The notes under the pieces are model-generated. The model saw nothing but the letters and a program-made list of their open reading frames with translations, ran no database searches and was not told the origin of the DNA. From NCBI GenBank assembly GCA_963761335.1, contig CAVXGR010000018.1, positions 576,001 through 640,000 of the forward strand: 64,000 nt of DNA. Reading direction: 5' to 3'. The DNA comes from an uncultured delta proteobacterium (GTDB taxonomy: Bacteria; Desulfobacterota; Binatia; HRBIN30; BPIQ01). Positions 1 to 23,532 of the stretch are shown here, piece by piece. Positions within the stretch are counted from its first letter, which is position 1. Each line of letters begins with the position of its first letter. A program made the translations under genes and the position numbers.

Positions 1-382
1 GGGAGCCGATGGCCATCGCTGCGCCGGAGCTGAGCGCCCCCAGCAGCAGCGGGATCTCGGCGACGTCGTCCTGTCCGTCGGCGTCCAGAAACAGCAGAAT
101 GTCTCCCGACGCGGCTCGACATCCGGCGCGTAGGGCCTCGCCCTTGCCGCGATTGCGCCGATGCCGGATCACTCTTGCCCCGGCAGCCGCGGCGACCGAC
201 GGGGTGAGGTCGCTGGAGCCGTCATCGATGACCAGCACCTCGGCGAGATTCGGAGTGGCGCGGCGCGCACCGCGTACCACCTCGGCGATCGTGCCCCCCT
301 CGTTGTACGCTGGAATGATGACGCTCACCGTGCCGGCGTCGGCCGGCGGAACGCGTGGGGCGGCAGAGCTGCTTGGGGACAT
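1..382 (-). CDS. Glycosyltransferase family 2 (DPM synthase-like), runs off the window edge
   Basis: Manual translation from ATG at 382: MSPSSSAAPRVPPADAGTVSVIIPAYNEGGTIAEVV...VLVIDDGSSD...RNRGKGEALRAG...LLFLDADGQD. These are the classic GT2 motifs. Not in the ORF track because it is truncated. Confidence 0.9.
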   Translation of the reverse strand, partial: MSPSSSAAPRVPPADAGTVSVIIPAYNEGGTIAEVVRGARRATPNLAEVLVIDDGSSDLTPSVAAAAGARVIRHRRNRGKGEALRAGCRAASGDILLFLDADGQDDVAEIPLLLGALSSGAAMAIGS

Positions 383-415
383 TGACGAAGTTGTAGCCTC
401 GCCGCAGTTCGACCG

Positions 416-1745
416 TCAAGGAGAACTGCGCCCTTGGCGAGTCTGGCCGTTCAGCGGGACTCCGCCGGCTTCGCCGATCGCCGCCAGTCTGCCAATCGGA
501 GGCAGACGTCCTCCCTCACCCTCGGCTGCGCCTTGGACCATCTGGCGGAAGCGGGATCCGACAATCTGCAGATCGCGGAAGTCCAGATCACTGCGATAGA
601 AGATGTGGGCCGCGCCGACGTCGAACGGGCTCCGCAGCGAGGAAGGTGCACATGTAAGCTCGAACTCCGCCTTCCCGGACTTTCCCGAGAGGGCAGCGAC
701 GAGGCCGCTGTCGTTGACTTGGAGGGAGTCCAGGGACCAGCCGTCTGCGATGCTCTGTCCGACGATGAAGGGTCCGACCTGCCGCAGCGCGGGCACCACG
801 GCCGGCGCGCCCGCTTCCCGCGCCGTCTCCAGTCGAGTCCAACGCTGCCTCTGATGAGAGATGGCGAGCAGGGCGCATACGGCCAGCACCGCTGCGGCGG
901 CAGCGAACCGCCGATCGACCCCACCTACTCCCGCGGTGGAGTGCGCCGAGGGCGTCGGCGTGCCGTCCGCCGAGAGGCCGAAGACGAGCAGAAAGACCAT
1001 CGATTCCCAATAGAGAATGTGGGTCAGCAGGTAGATGTTCGCATGCATGGCGAGCAATCCCAGAGCGATGCAGAGCCGCGTCCGGCCGCCGGCGATCACG
1101 AGCGGCCCCGCCAGCTCGAAGCCGAGGGTGGCGACGGCGAACAGCTGAGCGACTGCCGGAGTCGTCGCTACCCAGGAGCGATAGGCGCTCAGCAAGCTGT
1201 CGGCGACCAGTCCGTCCTGTCCGATGACGACTGCCTGGATGGGGATGCCGGAGATCCACTCGGTGCCTCCGTACACGGCCTTGCTGATGCCGGCGTTCAG
1301 ATACGCCGCACCCAGCAGGGCGAGGCTGCCGGTGCGAGCGAACGACTCGTCAGTCGGCGTTCCCCGGGCGCGACCCACGGCCAAGCCGAGAAGCCATCCG
1401 GACAGACACAGGCCGCTGTAGAAAAGATGGCGCCAGGGCGATCCGAACAGCTGTGCATGGACGGAGCTGAGCAGCGCCAGGGCGGCCAGCGCGATCATTC
1501 CCTCCCACAGGCGCCCGGGCCTGCGGCCAAAGGCGATGGTGGCCGCCAGGCCGATGGCGATCACGATGCCGCGCACGGTCGCTGCGCGAGAGGATGTCGA
1601 TCAGCGGGCCGAGAGCCGGGCCGCGGGCCAGCGCCGCGGCGCGGGCCTCGCCGAGGAAGAAGAAGAAGGAGAGCAGGTCGACGGCGACGATGGCGGCCAG
1701 GGCGATGCGCAGGCAAGGCCGTGTCGGCGGGGGCTGTGCGGTCAT
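416..1745 (-). CDS. HTTM-like polytopic membrane protein with C-terminal 'GW' domain; apparent frameshift near 1580
   Basis: ATG at 1745 overlaps the upstream stop (ATGA) and reads MTAQPPP...IALAAIVAVDLLSFFFFL. The sequence continues in a different frame as ORF 416..1576, which has several TM helices and AAYLNAGISK...W.SG, resembling the HTTM 'Y..AG..K...W..G' motif. Confidence 0.6.
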
Positions 1746-2188
1746 CGTCCCACCCGGCAGTGGGCGATGACACAGTCCGCGACAGGCGCCGGCGGCGAAC
1801 CGGGGCGCAGCTCCCAAGTCCGCGTGATGAGCTCCGCCTGGAGCGCGCCGGGACCGGCATGGGTCTCGATGTAGCGAGTCAGATCCTCGAACTGATACTC
1901 GATGCCGCGCCGGTGAGCGCACCGAGCCGCGCTGCCCCGCAGGGGCTCGCTGCAGTCGAAGGAGCTGAAATCGGTGACCCGGTGCACCGCACCCCCAGCG
2001 TCGCGAATCAGAAGGTGACTCGCCTGTCTGCCCGGCAGCCGGGCATACATGGAGAAGGTGTCGAGCGGATAGAGCAGCGACGCCATCTGGTCCCCGAGCC
2101 GCATGTCGAAGCGCACCGCCCACGACAGGGCGACGTAGCCGAGGACGCAGAGCACTCCGAAACGAAGCTGCGAGGCGCGCGCGCTCAC
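1742..2188 (-). CDS. Membrane-anchored hypothetical protein (148 aa), possible partner of the HTTM-like protein
   Basis: GTG at 2188 overlaps the stop of the upstream rSAM gene. One N-terminal TM helix is followed by a YPLDTFSMYA motif. It is the C-terminal part of ORF 1742..2815. Confidence 0.7.
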   Translation of the reverse strand: MSARASQLRFGVLCVLGYVALSWAVRFDMRLGDQMASLLYPLDTFSMYARLPGRQASHLLIRDAGGAVHRVTDFSSFDCSEPLRGSAARCAHRRGIEYQFEDLTRYIETHAGPGALQAELITRTWELRPGSPPAPVADCVIAHCRVGR

Positions 2189-3333
2189 GGGTGCAGCAGA
2201 GGCTCCAGATCGTCCAGCGGATCGACCTTGACGCCACGGGCGGCGAAGGCTGCCGCAAGATGGCGGATGGTCGTCTCGGCGAACTCCTCGGTGGCGAAGG
2301 ACTGAAGCCGGTGTTGCTCGTAGAGATGCCGGACGCGCTCGCCGAGGTACATCCGGTCCAGCCGCACGGCACAGACGTACGGGGCAATCTCCGCGACCAG
2401 GCGGTCGACGTTCATCGGCAGCACCGGCTGGATGACGGCAAAGGTCCTGATCCCCGCCGCGTGCAGCGCCCGCAGGGCCGCGAATCGCTCGCCGATCGGG
2501 TCGGCGCCGGGCTCGAAAATCTTCCGGTACTCGTCGGCATCGGTGGGAATGCTGAAGCCGACGAGGGCCCGCGGGAACCGCTTCAGCAGATCGAGATCGT
2601 CGAGGACGCGCGGCGCGCGCGTCAGGACGACCGGCGCCAGCTCGCTGTCGAGGAGCACCTCCAGACACTGGCGCGTGATCCGGTAGCGCCGCTCCGCCGC
2701 CTGATAGGGATCGGTGAGGATCGGGCTCAGCCTCACGGTACCGCGCTTCGTTGTCTGGATTTCGCGTCGCAGAACTTCCGCGGCGTTGATCTTCACGTCG
2801 AGATAGCGACCCCACGCAAGCCGTGGCAGGCCCTCCAGGCGGCGCGAGAAGTCCGCCCGGTCGATGACGTAGCAGAAGGAGCAGCCGATCATGCAGCCGA
2901 CGTAGGGGTTGATGTAGTAGCGGCCCCTGCCTTCCGGCATCAGCAGGCGTTCGACGAGAACCTCGCGCACGGCGGTGCCGCGCTCGGCGCCGGGCCGCTC
3001 TCCCGCCGGGAGCAGCGCCTCGCGATCGCGGACCACCGCGACGACGTCGTCGACCAGGCGGCGATCCGCCTCGTTCATGGGCGTGTCCTCGAGCAGGCGG
3101 CGCGCGCAGACGTTGAAGCGGGCCGTGCGCGTGTAGCAGTCCAGGCGATCATTGCGCTCTTCGAGCTCCACGAGAACGGAGGCCCCATCACGTTCGAAGG
3201 TGAGGCAGATCGCCTGCTCGGCGTCCCAGCTGATCAGATTCCAGCCGGAAGACGCAGGACGGTCGTTGAGGAACGGCGCCAGGAGCTGGCCGGCAACCTC
3301 CTCGATCCCGCGTCTTACCGGTGTGAGTCCCAC
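2185..3333 (-). CDS. Radical SAM protein (SplB/Rv2578c-like) with N-terminal 'GW' domain
   Basis: YINPYVGCMIGCSFCY motif, LSPILTDPYQAAE and FSIPTD...FEPGA, as in SPL-family rSAM enzymes. Probable GTG start at 3333; the ORF-track extension upstream is shadow of the opposite-strand gene. Confidence 0.85.
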   Translation of the reverse strand: MGLTPVRRGIEEVAGQLLAPFLNDRPASSGWNLISWDAEQAICLTFERDGASVLVELEERNDRLDCYTRTARFNVCARRLLEDTPMNEADRRLVDDVVAVVRDREALLPAGERPGAERGTAVREVLVERLLMPEGRGRYYINPYVGCMIGCSFCYVIDRADFSRRLEGLPRLAWGRYLDVKINAAEVLRREIQTTKRGTVRLSPILTDPYQAAERRYRITRQCLEVLLDSELAPVVLTRAPRVLDDLDLLKRFPRALVGFSIPTDADEYRKIFEPGADPIGERFAALRALHAAGIRTFAVIQPVLPMNVDRLVAEIAPYVCAVRLDRMYLGERVRHLYEQHRLQSFATEEFAETTIRHLAAAFAARGVKVDPLDDLEPLLHP

Positions 3334-3474
3334 GGTTCTGTGCTCATTCTGCGGTCGCGAGAGCGATCCGACAGGCAGGCTAGTCGCTACGGCAACGGCG
3401 AGCAAGGATTGCGAAGGCTCGGCCCCGAGCTTTTCCTCTGGAAATGGCGCGCCGCCTGCGCGAGACTTCCGAGG

Positions 3475-5265
3475 ATGTGGCGAATCTCTTGGGCCCGGGC
3501 AGCGGCGGCGGCGCGCCTGCTCGCCGAGCTCGCCGGATTCGCGGCGCTGCTGTTCGTGACCCGCTTCATCGCCCGCGGACACCTGGTCCCGCAGATGGAT
3601 CAGGAATGTCACATCGGCGGCATCGCCATCGACGTGCTCCGGCACGGAGTGCGCTTTCCGCTGATGGTGTACGCTCCCAACGAGTACGACAACGGCTCCT
3701 TCTTCAGCGGTCTCCTGGCGGCGGCGTCCTTCTCGCTCTTCGGTCGCAATCTCCTGGCCTTGAAGCTGGTCACGCACCTGATCTGTGCCGCCGGAGCCGT
3801 GGCCACCCTGTGGCTCTTGCGGGGCTGCCTCGAGGAGCTTGGGCTGACGACGCGGAAGGTGTACTGGGCAGCCGTCGCCGTGCTGATCGTCGAGATCGCC
3901 GTGGCCCCGCGCGTGGTGACCCTGGTCTCGATGTACGCCGTCGGCAACCACGCCGAGGGCTGCGCCATCGATACCATTCTGCTGGCGCTCTACTCGCACC
4001 GGGCGCCGCGGAGATCGGCGGCGCGCACCGCCGCCTTCTGGGCGCTGGTGGGGATTGGGCTCTACCTGAACAAAGGGACCTTCCTGGTCATTCCCGTGCT
4101 GGGCGCGGCGGAGGTTGCGCTCGGCTGGCGTTCGCGCCGCCGCCTCGTCGCCGCCCTGGGCGGGTTTGTCGCGGGTATCCTTCCGGAGCTGCTGGTCGTT
4201 GCCCGGCGCCACGCGATGGGCTGGGCGACGATGGCCTCCAAGGCCGAGAACAACTCGCGGGCGTTTCCTCGCGCTTTCGCCGACAGCTTCCTGACTCTTG
4301 CCGATAAGCGACCCGAGCTCCTGCTCCTGTGGGTCATTGCCCTGGTCGCCGGTGGGCTGTTGCTGGCGGGCGCTCTGCGTCGCCGTTGGAGCGGCGGCGA
4401 GGCAGACCTGTGCGCCGGCGCCGCGCCGCCGGTGGCGCTGGCGCTGGTGGTGGGTGTCACCTGCATGCATCTGGCGGCGATGACGGTGATGGCCCAGGGC
4501 GGTCTCGACGCCTACGCGATCTACAGCTATCCCGCGCTGGCCGTGCTGGTCGCGCTACTGGTTGCCTGGGGATGCGCCCAGGCGGAGGCGCACCGGGCCG
4601 GAGGCGGTGTCCTGGTCGGTATCGCCGCAGTGGCGATGGCGCTGGTGGTCTATCGTCCCGAGGCGCTGACCTGGGGAACCGCCGAGGTTTCGGAGCTGTG
4701 GCACGACCGGGCTGGCGCGGCCTGCTCCTGGCGCTTTGCGGAAGGCTTCATGCGCGAGCAGCACTACGGCCTGGCGCCCGGGCAGACTCGTGAGCAGCAC
4801 GCGATTGCCCGCTGCCGCTCTCTCAGCGATCGGGATCAGGTGCTCGACTGCATCGGCGGAATCGGCCGCGAGCTCAACTGGAGGCAGGGGGGGCGGGTGC
4901 ACGGGACGCCGCCGCCGGAGCTCGATGCGGCGGAGCGCCGCGCCTACGCCTACTACTACGGCACTCACCGGGGCGGCGACACGACGGCATGCCGCGACTT
5001 CGATGATACCCAGCTGGTGGCGGAATGTGAGTCCGCCGTGCAGCTGGACTGTCTCATCTTCGGCGACGTCTCCACGCGCTTCGTCGCCGGCCGCGGGCTC
5101 GGCCGACCGCGATGCAGCCTCGCGGCGCCCCCGATGGACGGCTACTGGATGGCGATGCGCGCCGAGCTCCTCGGGAGGCCGGGACACCGGGGCCCCGACC
5201 TCGGCGGCGGGCTCGGGGACAACGATCTGCGGTCCTGTCAGGCGGTTTTCGACGCCTGCTACTGA
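3475..5265 (+). CDS. Polytopic membrane protein, GT-C/ArnT-like glycosyltransferase candidate, with Cys-rich C-terminal domain
   Basis: ATG at 3475. About 10-11 hydrophobic segments, an acidic DQE loop after TM1, and a soluble C-terminus with many Cys. Confidence 0.55.
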   Translation: MWRISWARAAAAARLLAELAGFAALLFVTRFIARGHLVPQMDQECHIGGIAIDVLRHGVRFPLMVYAPNEYDNGSFFSGLLAAASFSLFGRNLLALKLVTHLICAAGAVATLWLLRGCLEELGLTTRKVYWAAVAVLIVEIAVAPRVVTLVSMYAVGNHAEGCAIDTILLALYSHRAPRRSAARTAAFWALVGIGLYLNKGTFLVIPVLGAAEVALGWRSRRRLVAALGGFVAGILPELLVVARRHAMGWATMASKAENNSRAFPRAFADSFLTLADKRPELLLLWVIALVAGGLLLAGALRRRWSGGEADLCAGAAPPVALALVVGVTCMHLAAMTVMAQGGLDAYAIYSYPALAVLVALLVAWGCAQAEAHRAGGGVLVGIAAVAMALVVYRPEALTWGTAEVSELWHDRAGAACSWRFAEGFMREQHYGLAPGQTREQHAIARCRSLSDRDQVLDCIGGIGRELNWRQGGRVHGTPPPELDAAERRAYAYYYGTHRGGDTTACRDFDDTQLVAECESAVQLDCLIFGDVSTRFVAGRGLGRPRCSLAAPPMDGYWMAMRAELLGRPGHRGPDLGGGLGDNDLRSCQAVFDACY

Positions 5266-6284
5266 GCGGTGGCATTTGCCGCCGCTGCCGGCGCGAGGAG
5301 ACGCTGCCGCCTCAGAAACTCGGCGAGCTGGTCGGCCACCAGGCGGTTGCCCGCAACCGTCATGTGGCCGTGAAAGAGACGAGCGCGCTGCTCGAGCGGC
5401 AGACTTTCGACCGGCGGGAACGCATCCACCGTCAGGAGATGATTCGCCCGGGCGCAGTCGAGTGCGGCGTCTTTGATCTGCAGATGCTCGGCGGTTGCGG
5501 TGGGTTGCTGTGGTTGCGCCAGGACGACGATGCGGAGGCCGTGGGCACGCTCGAAAGCGGCGAGGCGTTTCATGAGCAAGCAGGCAACCTCTCTGCCCTG
5601 GTGATGCACCACCGTCTCGTAGGGGCCCTCCCAGTTGATGAAGGTCGGAAAGAGCAGATCGGCGGTGACGCTGACCGACAGCAGGCGGCGCAGCGGGTCG
5701 TACACGGATGGCGGGGGAATCAGGGCGGAATGAAGCCGCAGCTGGCCGTCCTCGACGTCGAAGTACGGCTTCGGGTGCCCCGACCAGTACGACATCTCGC
5801 AGCGAAGGACGTCATGGGGGATGAAGCTGACGATGACGATGTTCGGTGCGTAGACGGGGGCGAGCTGCTCGGCGCGGAGCACGGCCTGGTCCAAGCCGAA
5901 GCCGGGGACGGCGGCGTTGATCACTCGGTGGCCGGTGCGCCGCTCGAGGATGGCCGGCCACGAGTAGCGGTCGTCAACCTGGTCGCCGAAGGCGAACGAG
6001 TCGCCCACGGCGAGCATCGGCGGGCGCGCCGCCGGCGGCGGCGGATTGCCGTTGCGGCGCGTGCCGTACTCTCCGATGCTGATGTTGAAGCCTCGCGGGT
6101 GATGAATCGAGATGCCGGCTTTTGGAATGCGACCGGCGACCGGGTCGACGACGGCGTAGCGACCGCTGTTGGGTCCTCCCAGCGAGAAGACGGTGTGCGT
6201 GGCAATACGCACCGAGAGCTCGATGAGAAGGAGAACGACTGTGGTGCCCAGCAATAGGCGCAGCGCGACGCGTTTGCGCGTCAT
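5259..6284 (-). CDS. SGNH/GDSL hydrolase-family protein with N-terminal membrane anchor
   Basis: AVGDSFAFG (block I), INAAVPGFGLDQ (block II) and GHMTVAGN (block V). Confidence 0.85.
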   Translation of the reverse strand: MTRKRVALRLLLGTTVVLLLIELSVRIATHTVFSLGGPNSGRYAVVDPVAGRIPKAGISIHHPRGFNISIGEYGTRRNGNPPPPAARPPMLAVGDSFAFGDQVDDRYSWPAILERRTGHRVINAAVPGFGLDQAVLRAEQLAPVYAPNIVIVSFIPHDVLRCEMSYWSGHPKPYFDVEDGQLRLHSALIPPPSVYDPLRRLLSVSVTADLLFPTFINWEGPYETVVHHQGREVACLLMKRLAAFERAHGLRIVVLAQPQQPTATAEHLQIKDAALDCARANHLLTVDAFPPVESLPLEQRARLFHGHMTVAGNRLVADQLAEFLRRQRLLAPAAAANATAQ

Positions 6285-6309
6285 CAATTCGGTGGAAAGG
6301 GTGTGGTGA

Positions 6310-7348
6310 CTAGCCCTGCGCTGGCATCGGTGGCGGGAGGGCGCCCGGCGGCGGGGAGACCATCATCGCCGGAGAGGGCGTGAGGGGAAGGGGCGACGGA
6401 GAGGGCGCGATGGGCAGGGGCGTCGGTGGAGGTCCTCCGGCGGCCGGCGTGGCCTCCATGCCGACGCAGGTGTCTGTCCCTGCCTGCATGTAAGAGTCAC
6501 AGGCATCGGCTTGCCCGAGGGCGGCCTTGGCGAGGGTGCGCTCGCGCGCCGGAGCCGACTCCGCCAGGTCCTTCAGGCCCTTGGCGTAGAAGCCCTTCCT
6601 GTCGATGGTGTTCTTGCAGTCCTCGACGATCTCCTTGGAGTCCTTGCCCTGGGCGCTGCAGAGAGACTTGTCGAGCTTGATGAAGGCGCGGCAAACTCCC
6701 TGCAGCTCGCCGGCAGCGGAGCACTGGCTCGCGTCGCCGGAGCGCAGCGCTTTGCGGAAGTTGTCGCAGATGCTGGCCACGCGCGGATCGGCGTGGCACT
6801 CCTCCAGCTTTACGTCGTCGAACATGAACGAGCGCCCATTCGGGTAGGTGCGCAGCTCGTGGAAGATCGAGCGCATGGCCCGACAGTCTTTGATCTGGCT
6901 GTCAGTGGTGAGCAGCTGGCAGGGCGCGTCAGAGTCGGTTGCCACGGCTCCACAGGTGACGAGCTCCGATGCCCGTGGTGCCAGGGCGCGCACCTCGTCA
7001 CTCTTCAGCACGGCAGCGTCCTTGGCGTGGCCCGAGAGGGCCGCCACGTACCGCTCGCAGCGATCGTGAGCCGCGGTATTGGCCGTGGCGACAGCCGGCA
7101 CCGGCGTGGGTGATCCGGCGGGCGCGCTCGTCGTCTCGTTTGCCGCCGTGGCCGTCGCCGGGGGCGCCACCGCAGTGGCGGTGGCGGCGGGGGGCGCCGC
7201 TGTCGGGCTCGCGACGAGCCACCGCGTGCGTCGGCGTCGGGGTCTTCTGCGGCTCGGCGGGTCGAGTGCAGCCGGCGAGCGGCAGGGCCAGGAGAACCAC
7301 GGAGCCGGTTCCCCGGACGATCAGTTTCGCGAAGCGAGAACGGGCCAC
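6310..7348 (-). CDS. Cys-rich lipoprotein with Pro/Thr/Ala linkers; apparent frameshift near 7220
   Basis: ORF 6998..7348 begins with a signal peptide and lipobox (LALPLAGC) followed by TPTPT. The Ala/Pro/Thr linker continues in the frame of ORF 6310..7170, which carries a Cys-rich domain and a Pro-rich tail. Confidence 0.6.
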
Positions 7349-7349
7349 G

Positions 7350-8354
7350 TCACAGCCCGTACCACTTTCGCCGCAGGGGCGTCAACTTGGGGTTTGTCGT
7401 CCGGGTGCTGGTCGTCTGCGCCCGACGCGCCGGGTAGGCTCCCGGGTGACCCTCCCGAAAGCGGCGGCCCAGTGGGTCGTCGCGTCGCGGCTGAGCGATT
7501 CCGGTCGCCCGGCTGGTCGGGGTCATCCGTTCGCCGGCGCCATTGATCCACGATCTCTCGGAGCTCTGCAGCTCGCGCAGCAGCTGCGGCCGCTGGCGCA
7601 GAAGGGCGATTGCCTCGGGCTGCGGAAGAGCGCGGTGGAGCAGGGCTCGGTACCTCTGCAGACGGGCGCGCCACTGTGCCGGCGAGAGGGTGGTCCTGGT
7701 CGGAGGCGGGCAGGGCACCTGCTGGCCGAGCAGCATGATCATCAAACCCTCGTAGTTGAAAGCCGGGTCGCCCGTCGCACAGCGACGATTGCCGCTTTCG
7801 ACCCACGGGCCACAGGTGGAGTAGTGATCGAGCAGGGGCTGCAGGCCGGATACATCCACCGAAGCGCGACAGTCTCGCCAGAAGCGCGTCTCGCTCTTGC
7901 GGTTGAACTTGTAATGCACGCTGAGAAACCACCGCAGGTAGTCCCAGTGGGCGCCGAGCGCCTCGTTGGCGAAGGAGCGGTCGGACGGCCGATTTCCCGA
8001 CTGCAGCCCGCCGATGAGATAGGCGATCTCGACAATGACCATGTGGAGGGCGGTGGACTCGAGCGGCTCGACGAACCCGTAGGCATTGCCCAGGGCAACC
8101 GTGTTGCCCTTCCAGAAATCCCGGTGGCGGCCGCTGCGGAACTGCGGGGGGACCCGATAGGAGAATGAGTACCTGCCCGGCAGACCCCAATCGAACTTGA
8201 TGCCCAGTTTCCAGGTGGGCCGCACCTCGCGGTACAGGTCGACGATATCGATGCCGAGCTGCCGGTGTAGAAATGGCGGCATCAGGGTGGTGGTTGCTTC
8301 GCCGACGCCGACAACCTTTCGAGCCTCAAGATCTCGACGGTCCTCCGGCATCAT
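7350..8354 (-). pseudogene. Tryptophan-halogenase-family (FAD-dependent) gene with two in-frame internal deletions
   Basis: GVGEAT, TWKLGIKFDW, FRSGR..FWKGN.VALGNAYGFVEPLESTALH and FLSVHY...FWR motifs are present. The GxGxxG FAD-binding segment and the central region (including WxWxIP) are absent. Length is about 334 aa. Confidence 0.8.
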
Positions 8355-9816
8355 GAATCCCTTCACTGATGTCTCGAGGTGCTGTGGTTGCCCAGCGCGC
8401 CAGGATTTCGGCCGTGCGCGAGTCGGTCTCGTTCGCCAGGAGCTCGAACAGTCGCCGCGAGACGGCCATGTGCTCCTTGCACTCGAATGAATGCGGGCGC
8501 TGCCCGAAGAGATCTCCCCGGGTGGCAAAGCTGTGCACGGGGTCGATGCCGCAGAAGGGCTTGTTCCAGCAGTCGGCGCACATCGGCTGCGCGTCGAGGA
8601 GGGAAGCCGCGGCAATGGCGCGCACGGTGGGGTGCTGCAGCACCTCGGCCAGGGTCAGGGTGCGCACATCGCCGATCGCGAAGATCGGATCGCCGGTGAA
8701 GTCGATCAGCCGTGCCTCCTCGCAGGGAAAGACGCGTCCATCGGCATCGTAGGCGAGCTCGGACGTTCCAGCTGCGGCTGGAGACTGGATGTCGCACACT
8801 CCAGGGTCTTCCGAGGTGAGGATGCGAGTCGCGAAGATCCGTGCGGTACCCTCGACGATGTCGACGCCCTGGCGGTTGAGCTCGAGGATGTAATCCAGGG
8901 CGCGCCGATAGAAGTCGAGGTACTCCTCAGCGGAGTAGCCGATCTCCGACCAGACGTCGCCGGAGATGCCGAGAGGATTGAGAGGTCGCAGGTAGATCGC
9001 GCCGAGTCCCCGGGCCACGTACTCGTCCACCAGCCCTTGCGGTTCCTCGAGGGTTCGCCGAGTTACATTGGCGCGCGCCTCGATCGCCCGGATGCGAGAA
9101 TCCTGGCCGCTCTCCACAGACTGGCGCTGAAAGTAATCGATCCAGCGAATCACCTCGGCATGGGTGCTGCCGCCGATCCACCGGCGATTCCAATCGTGAA
9201 TGCCCGCCGGTCCGTCGAGATCCGTCCGCACGCGGACGTCGTTGGCGATCAGCCACTCGGCAGACTCCGCGGTCATGGCGGTGAGATTGGTCACCAGTCG
9301 GAAGGCCAGCGTCTTGCCGGCCGTCTGCATGTTGCGCGAGCGCGCCAGATCCAGCAGATGGCGCAGCACGTCGAAGCTCGCCAGGGGCTCGCCGTCGCCG
9401 GCGCGGAGCTCGAAGGTGATCGACGGCGAAGTGCTCTGCAGAGCTACCTCGGCCACTTGCGCGGCAGTCTCCGGGCTCATGTCGACGGCTGTTCCTTCGC
9501 CGCTCCGGCGAAGGTTGACGACGTGCAGATGCGGCCCGCGACCGACGTGGCGATTGCGCCGCGCCACCCGGTCGGCGAAGGCGTCGAGGTCGAGCCCGTC
9601 GCGCAGGAAGCCCATGCGCTTGAACTCCTCAAACCGGGAATGACCTTCGGCAACGCGTCCGGCGAGCAGCTCATCCAGCTCCGCCTCGCTCAGAAGCGCC
9701 CAGTCGCCGGCGTCGTTGGTGACCAGGATCTTGCCGGCGACGCGTCCCCAGCGGAAGAATCCGAGCCGGTCCTCAGCGAGATCCTGGCGCGACAGCGTCA
9801 GGCTGCGTCGGTCCAC
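8326..9816 (-). CDS. HxsB-like radical SAM/SPASM protein lacking the CxxxCxxC motif
   Basis: Colinear with HxsB at 23771 (ILVTNDAGDW, GPHLH, LVTNLT, LDGP, YLDFYRRALDYILELNRQG, CADC.NKPFCG), but the cluster-binding motif is missing. Confidence 0.85.
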   Translation of the reverse strand: MDRRSLTLSRQDLAEDRLGFFRWGRVAGKILVTNDAGDWALLSEAELDELLAGRVAEGHSRFEEFKRMGFLRDGLDLDAFADRVARRNRHVGRGPHLHVVNLRRSGEGTAVDMSPETAAQVAEVALQSTSPSITFELRAGDGEPLASFDVLRHLLDLARSRNMQTAGKTLAFRLVTNLTAMTAESAEWLIANDVRVRTDLDGPAGIHDWNRRWIGGSTHAEVIRWIDYFQRQSVESGQDSRIRAIEARANVTRRTLEEPQGLVDEYVARGLGAIYLRPLNPLGISGDVWSEIGYSAEEYLDFYRRALDYILELNRQGVDIVEGTARIFATRILTSEDPGVCDIQSPAAAGTSELAYDADGRVFPCEEARLIDFTGDPIFAIGDVRTLTLAEVLQHPTVRAIAAASLLDAQPMCADCWNKPFCGIDPVHSFATRGDLFGQRPHSFECKEHMAVSRRLFELLANETDSRTAEILARWATTAPRDISEGIHDAGGPSRS

Positions 9817-10055
9817 TAACTCTCCTCCGCCAGAGCCGCCTGACGCATTCGCGAAATGGTCTCGTGCAAGACGTGATTGCAGAAGGCGTTGGCTACCATC
9901 TCGGCATCATCTTCGGCAACGCCGGAGATGATGGTCTCGATGGCGTCGGCGGCGGCAGTCACTTCGATCTGGGCGTGCTCGGCGTAGGCCGCCGCGGCGG
10001 CGTCGACGGCCTCAGGCAGGTATAGCGATCGGTCGAAGGCGATGCGCTTGGTCAT
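9816..10055 (-). CDS. Small HxsD-like protein (79 aa)
   Basis: FDRSLYLPEAVDAAAAAY...ANAFCNHVL. Paralogue of 23533..23778, and translationally coupled to its neighbours. Confidence 0.75.
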   Translation of the reverse strand: MTKRIAFDRSLYLPEAVDAAAAAYAEHAQIEVTAAADAIETIISGVAEDDAEMVANAFCNHVLHETISRMRQAALAEES

Positions 10056-10540
10056 CACTCCGTTTCCGGATCCTTCTTCGGCCCGGGCTCCTCGGTGGCG
10101 CCGCCGTGCTTCTCCTCCCATGGGACCATGATCTCCAGCGGGTCCTCGAGCAGCTCTTCGGCCTCCAGCTCGGCCAGCAGGTCGTCGACGGAGGGTGCCG
10201 AGGCGGCGGCGCGAAGCGCAGCCGCCGTGTAGTAGTCGCGAATATGCGTGGTCGCCTGGGAGAGGCGCAGGCGGGTGGCCTGCGACAGAAGCTCGTTGGC
10301 GAACTCACCGGCGAGGGCGTCCAGCTCCGCGGGTGTTGCAGGGGTCCGCGAGGTCAGCCTCGCGGTCACCACTTGCGGCTTCGGCCTCGACAGATAGACG
10401 AAGCACTTCTCGACGAACAGGTAGCAGGCGCCGTAGATGGCGTCGAGAGGATAGATGCTCTCGTCGACCTCGAAGGAGATCTGGTCAGGTCCCAGAGAGA
10501 AGCCGAGGCGAGACTGCTGCTCGGCGTCGGTCGCGGACAC
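10055..10540 (-). CDS. hxsD: His-Xaa-Ser system protein HxsD
   Basis: VDESIYPLDAIYGACYLF...GEFANELLSQATR...EDPLEIMVPWEEK, the HxsD pattern; sits next to an hxsB-like gene. Confidence 0.85.
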   Translation of the reverse strand: MSATDAEQQSRLGFSLGPDQISFEVDESIYPLDAIYGACYLFVEKCFVYLSRPKPQVVTARLTSRTPATPAELDALAGEFANELLSQATRLRLSQATTHIRDYYTAAALRAAASAPSVDDLLAELEAEELLEDPLEIMVPWEEKHGGATEEPGPKKDPETE

Positions 10541-10544
10541 TGCG

Positions 10545-11201
10545 CTACCTCAACCTCCGATCCACGGGACCCGAGAACAGGCGCAGGCGCTCCGACTGCG
10601 GCATCAGCGCCGCCATAAGAGGCCTGTTCTTCCACTTGGTTTCGTTGCGGGCGAGCACGTGGGCCAAGCGCGCAACCGCTTGGGCCAATCCTTCTTCCGT
10701 GGGCAGGTCTCCTCGTCCGCCATTCATGACCACGAGATCGAGACCCTTCGTGTGGACCAAGCCCTGCGGACGCCCATCGTTGCGGCAGAGATGGACGCGG
10801 TGTTCTCGACCCCGCGGATTCACCAGGGTCAGCACGCAGGTGCCGTCAACGACTCCGGTCAGGCCTGCGACGCGCCACCCATATGCCACCAATGATCCCT
10901 TGGCGAGTGGCCGAAGCAGCTCCCAGGGAGGCGGCGCGCCGAGGGTGCTCGCCGGCCCGGCGTCGACGACAGCGGGCTGCGGATCTACGGCCTTTCGAGG
11001 GTCGCCGACTGGCTCTGGAGCTGGAACGATCGCCTCCGTGGCGGCGGTCGCCGCTTGGATGGATCCCTCTTGATCCAGGGCAGAGCCGGTGACTGGCTCG
11101 GCGCGGCGTGCTGAGGCAAAGCTGGTCCGTGCCAGCCCCGCGGCCCACATCATGGCCGTACCGGCTGCGAGCCTTCCGACCAAATCACGTCGCGACAGCA
11201 T
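10545..11201 (-). CDS. Tat-exported 'GW'-domain protein (copy 2)
   Basis: GGAGG RBS upstream of ATG 11201; MLSRRDLVGRLAAG twin-arginine signal; close paralogue of 13956..14543. Confidence 0.8.
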   Translation of the reverse strand: MLSRRDLVGRLAAGTAMMWAAGLARTSFASARRAEPVTGSALDQEGSIQAATAATEAIVPAPEPVGDPRKAVDPQPAVVDAGPASTLGAPPPWELLRPLAKGSLVAYGWRVAGLTGVVDGTCVLTLVNPRGREHRVHLCRNDGRPQGLVHTKGLDLVVMNGGRGDLPTEEGLAQAVARLAHVLARNETKWKNRPLMAALMPQSERLRLFSGPVDRRLR

Positions 11202-11270
11202 GCCGCACCTCCTTCCGTTCATCCAATATTTCTCCTGCTACCACAGGCATTTTACGTTCGCAACGCGACA

Positions 11271-13325
11271 TCAGTCGTTCTTGTCGAGGAACCTGTCGCC
11301 CTCGTTCTTCGTCGCCGGGGCCGTGTAGTCGGCAGTCCAGCACTCACCGTTGCTGTTGACGAGCTGAACCGTCATCATCGGATCCTGGTTGAGCGGGATC
11401 AGCGGCTCGAGGCTGGCGAAGTCGAGGTTCAGACCCTTCGCCAGGACGACGAGCTTGGCGCTGGCGCTCCCCGCCTTCAGGCGGATGGTCTTGATGCCGC
11501 GCTGGGTCGAGTCCCTGTCCTTGTAGCGGAAGCCACTGACTCCGGTCGCCTTCCAGCACGGATGAGAGCCGCAGGTGCTGCTGCCCGGAATACCGGCGGT
11601 CAGCAAGCGGATCGGCGTGCCCGACGAGTAGTCGTATACGCAGAAGGAGTAGAAGGTCGAGGTGTTGACCGGGTCGCCGAAGTCGGGCGGCGAGGTGACG
11701 TCCCCGTACGATCGCACCGCCGACCAGGTCCACTTCAGCAGGTCCCTCTTGTCCGGGGACTTGTCGCGGATCAGCAGCAGCGACTTCTTCGGCTGTATCG
11801 TGATGTGGCACAGGTTCGCCGGCAGCGGCGTCAGGGCGCAGGGGTTGGGTGTCGGGGTCGCCGTGGGCGTCGGACTCGGAGTGGCGGTCGGGGTATCCGT
11901 CGGGGTCACGGTCGGCGTATTGGTCGGCGTGCTGGTCGGCGTATCCGTCGGCGTCACGGTCGGCGTATCCGTCGGCGTGCTGGTCGGCGTGTTGGTCGGC
12001 GTGCTGGTCGGCGTATCCGTCGGCGTGCTGGTCGGCGTTTCCGTCGGCGTGCTGGTCGGCGTATTCGTCGGCGTATTCGTCGGGGTGTTGGTCGGGGTGT
12101 TGGTCGGCGTGCTCGTCGGCGTGCTCGTCGGCGTATCCGTCGGCGTGCTCGTCGGCGTGTTGGTCGGCGTGCTCGTCGGCGTGCTCGTCGGCGTGCTCGT
12201 CGGCGTGCTCGTGGACGTCGGCGTATTGGTCGGGGTGCTCGTCGGTGTCCGCGTCGGCGTTTCCGTCGGCGTATCGGTCGGCGTGCTCGTCGGCGTCACC
12301 GTCGGCGTATTGGTGCTGGTCGGTGTCCTCGTCGGGGTGCTCGTGGACGTCGGCGTGTTGGTCGGCGTGCTCGTCGGCGTGCTCGTCGGCGTACTCGTCG
12401 GCGTGTTGGTTGGCGTGCGGGTCGGTGTCTGCGTCGGCGTGTTGGTCACCGTCGGCGTGCGTGTCGGGGTGCTGGTCGGCGTCTGCGTCGGCGTGCAGGC
12501 CGGGTTGAAATCGGCCGGGCACGAGGCGCTCGAGCCCGTGCAGGTCTCGGCGACGTCACAGGCGCCGGCGTCGGGCCGGCAGACCTGACCGCTGCCGCGG
12601 AAGGTGCAGCTGCTGGTGCAGCAAGAGGTCGAGCTGCCGTTCGAGCCGCCGAGGTCGCACTGCTCGGCGCTGTTGTTCGTGTCGGTCACGCCGTCGCCGC
12701 AGTCCGAGTAGTAGAAGGCGACGTCGACGCTGCTGTAGTCGGAGGCGCCTGACGACGGTGTGTGTGTGTTGTTGTAGTTGGTCAGGGCGTAGTCGAGAGA
12801 GAAGGTCGGGGCGCTGGCTTTGACATCGACCCGGAACGTGAAGGAGGTGCCGCTGGTGAGCTGGAAGAGGTAGCGGATGTCGCCATAGGTGCCGCTGTCG
12901 GCGGGGCTGCCGCCGGCGGCGATCGTCGATGCGGAGCCGGAGACTCGGGTGATGACCAGCTGGTTGCTCACCGTTTGCGACCCGTTGATCTGGTCGGCGA
13001 CGCTGGTCGAGCTGGTGTAGGTGATCGACGTGGAGTTGCTGGTCGAGTACTTGAAGATGGCGCTCCCCGAGGGGGCGGAGCCCGTCATGGTGTTGCCGTT
13101 CACATTCGAGGCCGCCCGGATGCCGAAGTACACGTTGGAGTGCGAGCCGAGGCTCACTCCGGAGCAGGTGACCGTGGCGCCGCCGCTGGAGCTGGGCACG
13201 CCGCTGACGCTGCAGGAGCCGCCCCCTGGGAGGCTGTACGTCGGGCCGCCGGTGATCACCAGCGCCGAGGCGCTGCTGGCGACGCCGAATAGAATGAGCG
13301 CCGCAAGGATTGCACCACGCTGCAT
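11271..13325 (-). CDS. Secreted protein: Ser/Thr-rich beta domain, myxobacterial Cys-rich/disintegrin-like module, long Pro/Thr linker, conserved C-terminal domain
   Basis: GGAGG RBS, ATG 13325, signal peptide (…SSASA), CGDGVTD..EQCD...CCTSSC...[13 protein letters not shown] and about 215 aa of TP-rich repeats. Confidence 0.85.
11847..12494 (-). repeat. Intragenic degenerate 12-bp tandem repeat encoding (T-P-T-S/N/D)n
   Basis: Repeated gtcggcgtgctc / gtcggcgtattg / gtcggcgtatcc units on the + strand. Confidence 0.9.
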
Positions 13326-13468
13326 CGTCCACCTCCGCCGTGGGTTGTGAAGCGAGCTCGAAGAGATGCGCACCGCAACGGAATCCGCGGCTGATCTTCC
13401 CCCGTTTGGCCGAAATAACGTCATCAAGGCGCCTCCGCTAGCGCTGCGGTGCTGTTTGCACCAGGGTG

Positions 13469-13858
13469 TCACCACGATCCGTGCGAGCCGTGACTGCCAT
13501 GAGACCCGTGACTCCCGTGGGACCCGTGGCTGCCGTGCGAGCCGTGGCTTCCATGTGAACCGTGGCTTCCATGCGAGCCGTGGCTGCCGTGCGAGCCGTG
13601 GCTGCCGTGTGAGCCATGGCTGCCGTGCGAGCCGTGGCTGCCGTGCGAGCCGTGGCTGCCGTGCGAGCCGTGCGAGGCGTGCGACATGTGCTGCGCCAGC
13701 ATCATGCTTTCATTGCTGGGGTCGGTCCGCAGGGCCTGAGCCGCTGCCGCAGGATCGACGGCACCGACCGGTTTCACCGCCTGGCGGGCCTCGTCGCGGC
13801 TGAGAAAATCCAATGGCGTCTTCCGCAATGAGGGAAGCGCGTTCTTCTTCTGGCTCAT
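13469..13858 (-). CDS. hxsA: His-Xaa-Ser repeat RiPP precursor (HxsA-type): 56-aa leader + HMS-HAS-(HGS)22-W
   Basis: 129-aa ORF with a GAAGGAGG RBS upstream. 24 tandem HxS triplets with synonymous codon variation; located among hxsB/hxsD homologues. Confidence 0.92.
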
Positions 13859-13955
13859 TGTCCCTCCTTCACCGTGGGCGCATCATCGACGCGATACGCC
13901 CCCCTATCTCGATTCGTAGCCACAACCGACCCCGGCCATTGCGCCGTGGAGACCC

Positions 13956-14543
13956 TCATCGCAACCTCGCCCCACTGGCAGCGGCAAATCGCTCGAGGCG
14001 CTCCGCGTGGGACAACAGCGCCGAGGCGAGCTGCCGCTGTCGGTTCGCCTCGTTGGCCGCGAGCACGCGCCCCACAGCGGCCACCGCCTGGGCCAATCCC
14101 TCTTCCGTGGGTAGATCTCCTCTGCCGCCGTTCATCACCACCAGATCGAATCGTCGGGTATGCACGAGACCTTGGGGCCGACCGTCGTTGCGGCAGATGT
14201 GCACGCGGTGCGAGCGCCCGCGCCGGTTCTCCAGCGCCAGCACGCAGGAGCCGTCTTCCTCTCCGCTCAAGCCAGCCACCCGCCAGCCATGGGCCACTGC
14301 GGACCCGATTCCCAGCGGCTGCAACAGATCCAAGGGTGGGCTGCTCGGCGGCGCGGGCTCGGCCGCGGACATGGCGGCCTCCGCTGCCGGAGCTGTGGCC
14401 GACTGCTCTTCACCGCTCTGCGCCAATGCGGAAACACCAATATCGTCGCGAGCGGATTTCGCCTCCGCCCGCCCGATGTTGGCAGACCACGCCACGGCAG
14501 CACCGGCCGCCAGCTTTCCGACGAACGCCCGTCGGGACAGCAT
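13956..14543 (-). CDS. Tat-exported 'GW'-domain protein (copy 1)
   Basis: ATG 14543, MLSRRAFVGKLAAG twin-arginine signal; shares CRNDGRPQGLVHT...DLVVMNGGRGDLPTEEGLAQAV with 10545..11201. Confidence 0.8.
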   Translation of the reverse strand: MLSRRAFVGKLAAGAAVAWSANIGRAEAKSARDDIGVSALAQSGEEQSATAPAAEAAMSAAEPAPPSSPPLDLLQPLGIGSAVAHGWRVAGLSGEEDGSCVLALENRRGRSHRVHICRNDGRPQGLVHTRRFDLVVMNGGRGDLPTEEGLAQAVAAVGRVLAANEANRQRQLASALLSHAERLERFAAASGARLR

Positions 14544-14915
14544 GCAGTTTTCCCCCCCTACAACTAGACAGGAACTAAAGGTTCGTAACGGGCGTATCAC
14601 AAGGCCGACGGACGAGTAAAGAAAAATTTTCGCGCGACCCCGGGAATTCTGTCGTCCGTCGAGAATGCGCCTCGGCGTGGCGCACCGCTGTCCGCCGGCC
14701 CTTTGCGTTCGAAAAAAATCTGGCGTCTCTTCAGGTGTCGTGATACGCGTTTCCTCTGACACGAGACGAATCTCTTACGTCTGTTGACAAGTGCGCGATA
14801 GAAAGGGATTCAGCAGGGGGGGCAAGAATCGCGCGAAGGACGGCGTACGGCTCTCGGCCGGCGACCGCGAACGAAGCAGCAGGACTGATCCCATTCGTGC
14901 AGAGAATCTTCTTTG

Positions 14916-16769
14916 ATGCACACTGATCCCTCGATCGACGCGGTTGGTGGTCTGACCCAGTTGAGCGGCGAGGCCGCTCGACGTCTGCTCTCACCCAGCC
15001 GCGGGGCGGAGGTGGATCTGCGCCTCTCGTTGGTGCGCCAGCGCGCCATTCTGCCCTGGCGGTTTGTGCCGCCCGATGCTCGCGACGATCTGCGGTCGAG
15101 CGAGGTGATCGACGCTGCCCGGGCGGCCGGTGCACATGCGGGAGCCTTTCTCATTGGCGGCGGGGATCCCCTGCGGCGTCCCGATCTGTGGGATCTGCTG
15201 GCGGAGTTGGTGCGCCTCAGGCCGAATGATCTCGGACTCTGCATTTCCGGTCGCGGGCTGACGGCGCCGGTGATCGAGCGCCTGCGCGCCGCCGGCGTGC
15301 GGCGGCTGCACGTCCCCTTTCACTGCGCTCGGCAAGATGCCCACGATTGGTTGGTCGGCCAGCCGGGCGCCTTGAAGATGGCTCATCGCGCCATCCGCGC
15401 CGCTGCCGAAGCGGAGCTGCCGGTGGTCGCCGAGATCGTCCTGACGCGACCGACGGTGTTGCATCTGGCCGAGACGGTCGAGGTGCTGTCCCGCATCGGC
15501 GCCGGCGCCGTCTGTGTCCGGCGGCTGGCGGCGGAGGACACCGACGGCACCGCCTTCGTGCCGCTCTCTCCGCGCCTGTCCTTGGTGGGCGAGAGCCTCG
15601 AGCAGGCGGCGGCGGTGGCCCTGCGGCGCCGCCTACGGCTGCGTCTGCGCGACCTGCCCCTGTGTGTCGCGCCGCGGCTCCGGCGACTGTTCGCCGCCGC
15701 CGAGAGCGAGGCATGGGTGATGGCCGACGGCACCCTGAGCCGGCGCGCCGCGGCGGCACTGGGGTGCCCCGACTGCCCCGGACCTCCGCGCTGCGCCGGC
15801 GCGCCGAGCGACTACACGGCGCGCTTCGGCTGGGAGGAGTTCGCCGACGTGAGCGTCGCCGCGGCGCGGCTCAGAGAGAACGTCGAGGAGCAGCGGGCGC
15901 CGCATCTGTCGGCACCGATGGTCTTCGCCTGGCGCGGTCCACATCGAGTGCGCTGCGACGCCTGCGGCGACGGGGCGGAGGCGCAGTCCGGATACGAATC
16001 GACGCGAGCGGTGCGCGCCAGGCTGGTGCAGGCGGCGCGCTATCGGCCGTCGCTGCTGCGCTTGGTGGGGGCGGATCTTCTCGCCCACCCGCAGGCGGCG
16101 GCGCTGATCTTCGATGCGGTGCGGCTGTTCCCGCGCGTCGAGGTCGTCGGGGAGGCCAGCGCCGTGGTCGAATGGTCCGATCTCGACCTGCGCCGCTTGA
16201 AGGACCTGAAGCGCGTCGACGTCCCATTGTATGGGCCCGATGCGGCGACCCACGACTCCCACTGCGGTATTCCCGGAGCCTTCGCTGCGATGCTGCGCGG
16301 CGTCCAGCGTCTGGGCGCCCAGGAGATCCGGGTTGGCGCCTACGCCGTCCTTCATGACGCGCATCTGCTCGAGCGGTTCGCCGCAGCTTGGGACGCCGGT
16401 AGCTTGCCGGGCGAGCCCCGCTTTCGCCTCTCGGCCCGCGGCGCGTCTCTCGATGAGCTGGCGGAGGCGGCGCGCCGTTTGCCGAGCGGCCCGGCGCGCG
16501 CCGCGGTGGCGGCGCTCTTGCCCCGCTGCCTGTGGGACGATTCCGCCGCCGGCAGCGGCGGTCAGGTCCTGTTGGTTCAACGGCCGGAGCCGCAGCGGGT
16601 CGTCCACTGTGGCAGGAGCACTTCCTATCATTCATGCGGATCGGATCCGATCGGGGATTTTGAGACATGCCGTGAGGGCGCCGGTGCGTGCGCCGGCTCG
16701 GGATGTGTCGGAACCGCTGTCGGGTGGCGGACTGCGGCGAGGTCAGAGCGATGGAACGTGAGGATCTGA
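14916..16769 (+). CDS. Tandem double radical SAM-like protein, both domains lacking CxxxCxxC
   Basis: Domain 1 has GGGDPLRRPDL, VPFH..RQDAHD.LVGQPGA and DLPLC. Domain 2 has VGADLLAHP and VPLYGPDAATHDSHCGIPGAF. Only CDAC remains at the motif position of domain 2. Confidence 0.75.
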   Translation: MHTDPSIDAVGGLTQLSGEAARRLLSPSRGAEVDLRLSLVRQRAILPWRFVPPDARDDLRSSEVIDAARAAGAHAGAFLIGGGDPLRRPDLWDLLAELVRLRPNDLGLCISGRGLTAPVIERLRAAGVRRLHVPFHCARQDAHDWLVGQPGALKMAHRAIRAAAEAELPVVAEIVLTRPTVLHLAETVEVLSRIGAGAVCVRRLAAEDTDGTAFVPLSPRLSLVGESLEQAAAVALRRRLRLRLRDLPLCVAPRLRRLFAAAESEAWVMADGTLSRRAAAALGCPDCPGPPRCAGAPSDYTARFGWEEFADVSVAAARLRENVEEQRAPHLSAPMVFAWRGPHRVRCDACGDGAEAQSGYESTRAVRARLVQAARYRPSLLRLVGADLLAHPQAAALIFDAVRLFPRVEVVGEASAVVEWSDLDLRRLKDLKRVDVPLYGPDAATHDSHCGIPGAFAAMLRGVQRLGAQEIRVGAYAVLHDAHLLERFAAAWDAGSLPGEPRFRLSARGASLDELAEAARRLPSGPARAAVAALLPRCLWDDSAAGSGGQVLLVQRPEPQRVVHCGRSTSYHSCGSDPIGDFETCREGAGACAGSGCVGTAVGWRTAARSERWNVRI

Positions 16770-18631: not shown

Positions 18632-18653
18632 CGGGATGTGAAGACGCGATCCG

Positions 18654-19691: not shown

Positions 19692-19694
19692 GCC

Positions 19695-22007: not shown

Positions 22008-22009
22008 GC

Positions 22010-22942: not shown

Positions 22943-22943
22943 T

Positions 22944-23021
22944 GGGGACAGGCTACTTTTCGGCGGCACCGCCTGCCGATTCAAGAGAAGGCGACGCGTC
23001 GCCGAAGAGTAGCCTGTCCCC
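22944..23021. repeat. Intergenic inverted repeat (22-bp arms, 1 mismatch), REP/hairpin-like
   Basis: ggggacaggctacttttcggcg (22944-22965) pairs with cgccgaagagtagcctgtcccc (23000-23021). Confidence 0.85.
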
Positions 23022-23527: not shown

Positions 23528-23532
23528 GCGCG

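Follow-up and report, generated by a model that had tools for sequence, protein, structure and literature searches.

The 64,000-nucleotide window analyzed here, a stretch of contig CAVXGR010000018.1 (positions 576,001 to 640,000) from an uncultured member of the Binatia, carries the genes of an HxsA4-type peptide maturation system, and a segment of fewer than 100 residues seems to recur in four of the proteins encoded at its left end. Two of these carry twin-arginine translocation (Tat) signals, one is a radical S-adenosylmethionine (rSAM) enzyme and one is a membrane protein. Is this one protein domain used in three different contexts and, if so, what would it do for the maturation of HxsA4? 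Sequence comparison and predicted structures together indicate that the four segments are copies of a single, previously unnamed alpha/beta domain of ∼95-100 residues. Gene frames were assigned from codon-position G+C content (the window has a G+C content of 65-71%) and from family scans, and place the four copies as follows.

10545-11222, minus strand: Tat1, a twin-arginine-signal protein of 225 residues, with signal, Ala/Pro-rich linker and domain (domain at 10548-10937)
13956-14543, minus strand: Tat2, a Tat1 paralogue of 195 residues (domain at 13959-14345)
2185-3333, minus strand: radical SAM enzyme of 382 residues (PF04055, CxxxCxxC) with a divergent domain copy at its N-terminus, ∼2959-3333 (rSAM-N)
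416-1576, minus strand: polytopic membrane protein of no named family with a divergent domain copy at its C-terminus, ∼497-814 (membrane-C)

The original prediction had proposed a fourfold reuse of such a module from alignment by eye, and the segments it marked are real: all four are encoded on the minus strand, and codon-position G+C agrees with the frames of the genes that contain them. Positions 10640-10925 and 14048-14335 form the cores of the Tat1 and Tat2 domains, 3020-3290 corresponds to residues 15-105 of the rSAM enzyme, inside its N-terminal domain, and 520-790 corresponds to residues 263-353 of the membrane protein, inside its C-terminal domain. The true start of Tat1 is likely its second Met, at 11201. 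The rSAM enzyme scores above the gathering threshold of PF04055 (35.3 bits vs 29.5) and has its C-x3-C-x2-C motif just after the N-terminal domain; it corresponds to no named equivalog, because the nearest NCBIfam models score far under their cut-offs (PA0069, 98.3 bits vs 360; Rv2578c, 72.1 vs 430). Within the region 416-1800 (minus strand), the membrane-protein gene shows two frame changes relative to its homologues, near 1590 and near 505: the first ∼60 residues of the homologues are encoded in another frame upstream of ∼1590, and the conserved C-terminal tail (…C-x-R-L-x-x-W-R…) runs on in another frame after ∼505. An indel in the assembly or decay of the gene would account for these changes, which leave the domain copy in frame. 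The label ‘HTTM-like’ attached to this protein was not upheld, as Pfam HTTM matches neither the window protein nor, at E up to 5, three full-length homologues. PDB sequences searched with a profile built from 13 homologues likewise gave nothing at E up to 10.

Judged by sequence, Tat1 and Tat2 are clear paralogues (113 of 225 residues identical, BLASTP E 2e-55, with 65% identity over the domain). BLASTP gave no significant match for any other pair, the best being rSAM-N against membrane-C (E 0.093), at the positions claimed. The relatives gathered numbered 1085 proteins for the Tat protein, 86 for the rSAM N-terminal domain and 17 for the membrane-protein C-terminus; among the matches listed, all relatives of the rSAM N-terminal domain contain PF04055 and are 318-487 residues long. 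In profile-profile comparison with hhalign, a narrow Tat profile aligned with membrane-C at a probability of 84% (E 7.7e-6) and with rSAM-N at 35% (E 4e-4). Four unrelated controls run with narrow profiles gave E 0.2-0.63, and the controls overall (rSAM core, transmembrane part, HxsD) E 0.024-0.63. When genome-derived members and two divergent fusion forms were added to the Tat profile, the values became 90% (E 1.5e-6) for membrane-C and 67% (E 5e-5) for rSAM-N; with a profile built from 137 representatives (50% identity), they were 93% (E 3.5e-7, 85 columns) and 36% (E 3.8e-4, 95 collinear columns), respectively. Tat against membrane-C and Tat against rSAM-N stand above the controls; rSAM-N against membrane-C is weak (probability 1.3%, E 0.039, 71 columns). 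Adding secondary structure from AlphaFold2 models to hhalign left the secondary-structure score at 0.0, so it was not used.

Three further controls bear on the two divergent copies. In column permutation, the observed score for rSAM-N was 33.0 (permuted mean 12.4, sd 2.6, maximum 25.4) and that for membrane-C 40.2 (mean 12.2, sd 2.5, maximum 21.5), with 0 of 200 permutations reaching the observed value in either case. Hidden Markov models (HMMs) were also run against 270 family proteins and 270 reversed copies as decoys. The rSAM-N HMM matched 192 real vs 4 reversed sequences at E<10 and 4 vs 0 at E<0.01, and the membrane-C HMM 257 vs 7 and 162 vs 0; HMMs of the rSAM core (0 vs 2) and of the transmembrane part (15 vs 5) showed no comparable excess at E<10. 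Finally, when a broad family HMM was applied to the 630 six-frame open reading frames (ORFs) of the window, the top two ranks went to the Tat proteins and the next two to the membrane-protein ORF (E 0.012) and, in fourth place, the rSAM ORF (E 0.11), both matched at the positions claimed. The best matches across families are reciprocal. Taken with the structure models described next, the shared domain is concluded to be real: firm for Tat1 and Tat2, probable for the membrane-C copy and likely for the rSAM-N copy, which is the weakest link, with many concordant weak signals and no single strong E-value.

Structurally, AlphaFold2 models cover Tat1 (predicted local distance difference test, pLDDT, 86.8; predicted template modeling score, pTM, 0.82) and rSAM-N (pLDDT 87.2, pTM 0.79), and were compared by their DSSP strings under the hhalign alignment. 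The Tat1 model contains a short helix, strands at 22-27, 34-40, 46-53 and 67-72, a helix at 83-99 and two extra C-terminal helices, and the rSAM-N model a helix, strands at 31-36, 41-47, 50-58 and 72-79 and a helix at 87-106. The order of elements is the same in both, and their DSSP states agree at 73 of 95 aligned positions, compared with 35-48 of 95 at register shifts of at least 6. In the domain, a short N-terminal helix bearing the motif P-[LF]-x2-G-x5-G-W is followed by four consecutive strands and then a long helix. The core family is further defined by an invariant Gly-rich loop, N-x-G-x-P-x-G...D...M-N-G-G-x-G-x3-T-x-E, in which N53, G55, P57, G59, D67, M71, N72, G74, G76, T80 and E82 are invariant across 48 sequences, including cytoplasmic fusion proteins. 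His49 and Cys51 are near-invariant in the Tat branch and missing from the fusion forms. Of these features, the divergent members, rSAM-N and membrane-C, retain the fold and the N-terminal motif, whereas the loop has been lost from both. Profile comparison, permutation, decoys, window ranks and AlphaFold2 models thus agree with the proposal of one unnamed domain of ∼90-100 residues in four copies and three contexts.

Searches of Pfam, NCBIfam and PADLOC placed no family on the four window segments (E up to 10) or, over the domain, on the whole proteins. With Foldseek at E ≤ 0.001, the Tat1 model had 0 matches in PDB and BFVD and the rSAM-N model 0 in PDB; the family profile searched against PDB sequences reached at best E 0.0047, to a designed armadillo repeat and over the helix only. 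In the ESM Atlas, rSAM-N had no usable match and Tat1 only a lead with a score of 0.75, to a cluster automatically named "Twin-arginine translocation pathway signal family protein". A diverged HxsD was considered as a source of the domain; hhalign gave E 0.03-0.13, hence the two are not related. ‘GW’, the name under which the segment was first noted, is the earlier reader's nickname, and the domain is unrelated to the Listeria GW module, an SH3-like cell-wall anchor. The likeness is limited to the conserved Gly-Trp dipeptide behind the nickname, whereas no copy has a Pfam match to that module and the predicted fold differs.

How widely is the domain used? A profile of 48 domain sequences searched against 1.84 billion representatives retrieved 654 clusters at 50% identity with E ≤ 0.001 (294 at ≤ 1e-10 and 55 at ≤ 1e-30). 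Because of this family size and the range of architectures, the domain is not cluster-specific, contrary to what had been supposed, and occurs both with and without an export signal. Architectures were read from the best 150 of the 654 clusters. Among these, 119 representatives have no more than 260 residues in total and 30 or more ahead of the domain, and 109 of these 119 have a twin-arginine (RR) motif. The core family is made up of small proteins that combine a Tat export signal, a flexible linker and the domain. Tat1 (LSRRDLVG...ASA) and Tat2 (LSRRAFVG...AEA) both show the features by which Tat export is predicted, namely an S/T-R-R-x-F-L-K-like motif near the N-terminus, a hydrophobic stretch and an A-x-A-type cleavage region. 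The twin-arginine motif is near-invariant in the family, with M-L-x-R-R conserved in 90% or more of 56 sequences. In the 39 of the 150 listed representatives that were scanned, the only families matched were TAT_signal, GT1, Radical_SAM and Fer2, all outside the domain, the Pfam TAT_signal HMM matching weakly and under its cut-off in 2 of the 39.

Six of the best 150 exceed 260 residues (P0290, P0284, P0291, P0300, P0255 and P0366). P0290 (731 residues) joins an HxsD_rel region (NF038315, under cut-off), the domain, an HxsD-like region (phmmer E 2.3e-5 against the window HxsD), an HxsC4-like rSAM part and a 2Fe-2S ferredoxin. Over the length that they cover, P0284, P0291 and P0300 match the N-terminal part of P0290, and an ORF in locus L015 is a further fusion of the P0290 type. 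All of these fusion proteins keep the invariant loop and have no signal peptide. The same three small parts are found in the window operon, where Tat1, hxsD and hxsD_rel are separate genes followed by hxsB. The original prediction had also placed the domain on both sides of the membrane. This placement is supported by inference from the twin-arginine signal, which the Tat forms have and the rSAM copy and the fusions do not; hydropathy and the positive-inside rule leave the side of the membrane-protein copy unsettled.

Other contexts were observed as well. P0255 (892 residues) and P0366 (535 residues) fuse the domain to a GT1-type glycosyltransferase, without a signal peptide; together with a GT2 gene at 2-415 of the window, these fusions hint at a link to glycosylation. 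Directly after hxsB in locus L016 (12599-14713, plus strand) lies a gene for a polytopic membrane protein of ∼700 residues without a family match. Its N-terminal ∼90 residues are weakly domain-like (E 0.13 with the broad HMM, searched over 5963 ORFs) and have G-Y where the domain has G-W, which makes it a possible further context of the domain on sequence grounds. A tblastn search of a plasmid collection with three family members gave no match.

Genomic neighborhood analysis connects the Tat branch to the Hxs genes. A scan of a genome collection with the Tat family returned 47 loci, in metagenome-assembled genomes mostly labelled Candidatus Binatia, "Deltaproteobacteria" or Polyangiaceae. These loci and the window together hold 53 Tat-domain genes, of which 31 are followed by hxsA4, 12 by hxsD, 8 by a contig end and 2 by another or no neighbor; 43 of the 45 evaluable genes are therefore directly upstream of a signal-less hxsA4 (31) or of hxsD (12). 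Tat-domain genes are locked to the HxsA4-type system in Binatia-like relatives. There, one copy stands directly upstream of each signal-less hxsA4 gene and another directly upstream of hxsD-hxsD_rel-hxsB; in the window, the gene directly upstream of hxsA4 is Tat2 and the one directly upstream of hxsD is Tat1. Tat-hxsA4 cassettes also occur in tandem (three in L040, at 3317-10747, and two in L019): the pair duplicates as a unit. A block of four HxsC-like genes upstream of the pair is conserved in many loci, and 36 HxsA4 leaders are conserved and, by inspection, have no hydrophobic signal. A division of the Tat proteins into two clean clades, hxsD-adjacent and hxsA4-adjacent, was rejected, as neither group is monophyletic in a poorly resolved tree; the labels do cluster (0 of 500 shuffles as low).

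The Hxs genes of the window itself are the following.

13469-13858, minus strand: HxsA4 precursor (NF038313, 143.2 bits vs cut-off 55)
10055-10540, minus strand: HxsD (TIGR03976, 50.5 bits vs cut-off 50)
9816-10121, minus strand: HxsD_rel, a small HxsD-like gene between hxsD and hxsB (NF038315, 58.1 bits vs cut-off 41)
8326-9816, minus strand: HxsB-type radical SAM/SPASM maturase (TIGR03978, E 7.6e-105, 351.3 bits, just under the cut-off of 370)
14913-22007, plus strand: four tandem HxsC-like radical SAM genes (Pfam/NCBIfam scans), divergent from Tat2
23036-23527, plus strand: second HxsD gene (TIGR03976, 54.9 bits), 3' of the four HxsC-like genes

By codon-position G+C and family scans, the minus strand holds the genes of positions 1-14,800, save for one plus-strand membrane-protein gene (∼3400-5265). 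From right to left, the order is Tat2, hxsA4, a disintegrin-like gene, Tat1, hxsD, HxsD_rel, hxsB and a tryptophan-halogenase-like gene, followed by a gene of unknown type, an SGNH/AlgX-like gene, the plus-strand membrane-protein gene, the rSAM gene, a small transmembrane-protein gene, the polytopic membrane-protein gene and the GT2 gene. The window HxsA4 has a conserved 56-residue leader without a hydrophobic signal, followed by (His-Gly-Ser) repeats that end in GSW. The start of the HxsD_rel gene is uncertain, its homologous part spanning ∼9834-10049. Among the rSAM proteins of the window, the best score against HxsC (TIGR03977) is 98.2 bits vs a cut-off of 267.9 and that against HxsC4 (NF038332) 119.9 bits vs 500; by these scores, the genes at 14913-22007 are classed as HxsC-like only. 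One of the four has a B12-binding-like N-terminal part, and a 585-residue ORF follows the second HxsD gene, the plus-strand block extending over 14913-25321.

The left-hand rSAM and membrane-protein genes had been assigned to the Hxs system, and this assignment is supported by recurrent, though not universal, synteny with the Tat-hxsD-hxsB operon. The rSAM gene with the N-terminal domain is present in L008 and L025, the membrane protein and the small transmembrane protein are encoded after hxsB in L032 and nearby in L037, and the block of SGNH, unknown and membrane-protein genes occurs in L001 and L008. Many of the loci are cut off after a few kilobases, which makes these counts minimum values.

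Several neighbors of the Hxs genes deserve mention in their own right. Between Tat1 and hxsA4, the gene at 11271-13331 (minus strand) encodes a secreted protein in which a disintegrin-like, Cys-rich domain (PF00200, E 9.5e-10) is combined with a long linker of Thr-Pro repeats; antisense to it runs a long spurious ‘VGVLVG’ ORF with high third-codon-position G+C (11653-12588, plus strand). A tryptophan-halogenase-like flavoprotein gene (7350-8615, minus strand, PF04820 E 1e-34) overlaps the end of hxsB, and a gene of this kind follows hxsB again in L001 and L035, a recurrence that suggests an extra tailoring step. The plus-strand gene at 3400-5265 encodes a polytopic membrane protein of 621 residues that is kept with the cluster in L001, L008 and L034. 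A GT-C/ArnT-type glycosyltransferase was considered for this protein and dropped, as Pfam, NCBIfam and PDB sequence searches gave no match.

What, then, would the domain do? With moderate confidence, it is taken here to serve HxsA4-type maturation as a recognition and escort module, because some genomes fuse it to the cytoplasmic maturase and others encode it with a Tat signal beside the precursor gene. The domain would hold the HxsA4 precursor, or the HxsD/maturase complex that engages the precursor, and within enzymes it would recruit the substrate. The Tat form may bind matured HxsA4 in the cytoplasm and escort it through the Tat pathway, or may instead retain HxsA4 in the periplasm. The divergent copies on the rSAM enzyme and the membrane protein could recruit the same substrate to further tailoring steps. 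A role for the Tat proteins as dedicated carriers, which would take rSAM-matured, signal-less HxsA4 through the Tat translocon as a hitchhiker, is a tentative and rather doubtful proposal.

A number of observations weigh against the recognition and escort module. The substrate- or product-binding role named in the original prediction is a putative one, drawn from gene adjacency and fusions. Because neither structure model matched a known fold, function is not readable from structure. The Gly-rich loop might just as well bind a ligand or metal or serve in catalysis; since both divergent copies lack it, the function may differ among the three contexts. The rSAM-N copy never exceeds an hhalign probability of 67%, and its direct match to membrane-C is the weak one given above. 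The rSAM and membrane-protein genes are found with Hxs genes in 2 of 47 loci each (many of these loci being cut by contig ends), and, within the family of 654 clusters, the Hxs link is established for the Binatia-like branch only (the 47 loci and the window). Moreover, the canonical HXS system of E. coli works without any such domain protein. Co-folding of the Tat2 domain (29-row alignment) with HxsA4 residues 1-80 (26 rows) scored 0.00 in both runs; it was made without controls and is counted neither way.

The best-surviving alternative, though an unlikely one, is that the domain has a docking or scaffolding role in the maturase complex through protein-protein contacts, binding HxsD, HxsD_rel or the rSAM enzymes rather than the peptide; the Tat form would then have a separate periplasmic role or tether the complex at the membrane. 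Such a scaffold would fit the fusions, in which the domain stands between HxsD_rel and an HxsD-like region and ahead of an HxsC-like rSAM part, and the 12 of 45 evaluable Tat-domain genes that lie directly upstream of hxsD and not of hxsA4. An HxsC-HxsD complex has also been reported for the canonical system in the main text of PMC13128918. However, for 31 of the 45 evaluable Tat-domain genes the partner is the precursor gene, with which they are duplicated as a pair, and a cytoplasmic scaffold would have no need of a conserved Tat signal.

A decidedly improbable alternative holds that members of the core family are small proteins that bind a ligand or metal, or are enzymes, and act on or with the His-rich repeats, for example in metal handling, leader removal or periplasmic modification, and that Tat export reflects cytoplasmic folding or cofactor loading. 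The Tat pathway is typically used by cofactor-bearing proteins, and the invariance of the polar, Gly-rich loop across 48 sequences, cytoplasmic fusions among them, together with the near-invariant His49 and Cys51 of the Tat branch, would suit such an activity. Yet the fusion forms do without His49 and Cys51, the rSAM-N and membrane-C copies do without the loop, and searches of PDB and BFVD structures and of PDB sequences gave no likeness to a known enzyme or metal-binding fold. Last, a relationship confined to the two Tat proteins, with the likeness of rSAM-N and membrane-C due to chance or to convergence of small beta-rich segments, could draw on the non-significant BLASTP results for non-Tat pairs, the hhalign probabilities of only 35-67% for rSAM-N and the E of 0.039 between the two divergent copies, but it is contradicted by the permutation, decoy and rank controls, by profile alignments that are collinear over 85-95 columns and by the matching secondary structure of independent AlphaFold2 models of Tat1 and rSAM-N, and is very hard to credit.

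The large, unnamed domain family gives an rSAM pathway that is still poorly understood a defined, testable candidate for the steps of substrate recognition and export. The HXS system was only recently shown to have an antiphage function, in E. coli, where HxsA is matured by HxsB/HxsC and acts in the periplasm; the effector must reach the periplasm after rSAM maturation, by a route that is open. The authors suggest that its export needs other Hxs proteins, and an ‘accessory translocator’ for HxsA export is also proposed there (main text of PMC13128918). Should the Tat proteins prove to be carriers, they would let an rSAM-modified effector reach the periplasm without a signal peptide of its own and would be a concrete candidate for the translocator proposed there (PMC13128918, main text). 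Independently of function, the domain merits a family model, with which thousands of "hypothetical proteins" could be annotated.

In comparison with known systems, the HXS system itself (HxsA/B/C/D, TIGR03976-03979) has already been described, and what appears to be new is an HxsA4-type system with an undescribed accessory domain family. Its main part, Tat proteins encoded beside genes for His-Gly-Ser repeat peptides, looks like an undescribed Hxs accessory component: full-text literature searches retrieved only the 2026 paper PMC13128918 and its preprint as work on the HXS system, and "HxsA4" and "twin-arginine" are absent from the main text (supplements aside). The window resembles the HXS system in encoding HxsA4 and HxsD_rel (both above cut-off), HxsD (at its cut-off), an HxsB-type rSAM/SPASM maturase (just under its cut-off) and several HxsC-like rSAM enzymes, and the canonical precursor is likewise rSAM-matured and active outside the cytoplasm, as described in the main text of PMC13128918. 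Canonical HxsA carries a signal peptide of its own along with a peptidoglycan-binding domain containing five HxS repeats; the window HxsA4, by contrast, is signal-less and combines the conserved leader of 56 residues with a long (HGS)n tract. The canonical system is described in the main text of PMC13128918 as four genes with no Tat protein, whereas in the window a Tat protein with the new domain accompanies both the precursor and the hxsD-hxsB operon.

The domain also recalls the RiPP recognition element (RRE, PqqD-like), in that a small domain stands at the N-terminus of an rSAM enzyme and also occurs alone in a cluster with a leader-bearing precursor. By analogy, this pattern of occurrence is the behavior that would be expected of a substrate-recruiting module. 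Unlike the RRE, however, the domain has no Pfam match to PqqD or another family, and its modeled topology of a helix, four strands and one long helix is not a winged helix, which in the RRE comprises three strands and three helices.

The Tat pathway exports folded proteins together with bound partners, and in hitchhiker export signal-less hydrogenase large subunits or DmsB are carried by a signal-bearing partner. The known pairs are redox-enzyme subunits and not a peptide-like repeat protein, and the pairing proposed here is a putative one. The likeness lies in the arrangement, since in both cases a small signal-bearing protein is encoded beside a partner that has no signal, although its site of action is expected to lie outside the cytoplasm.

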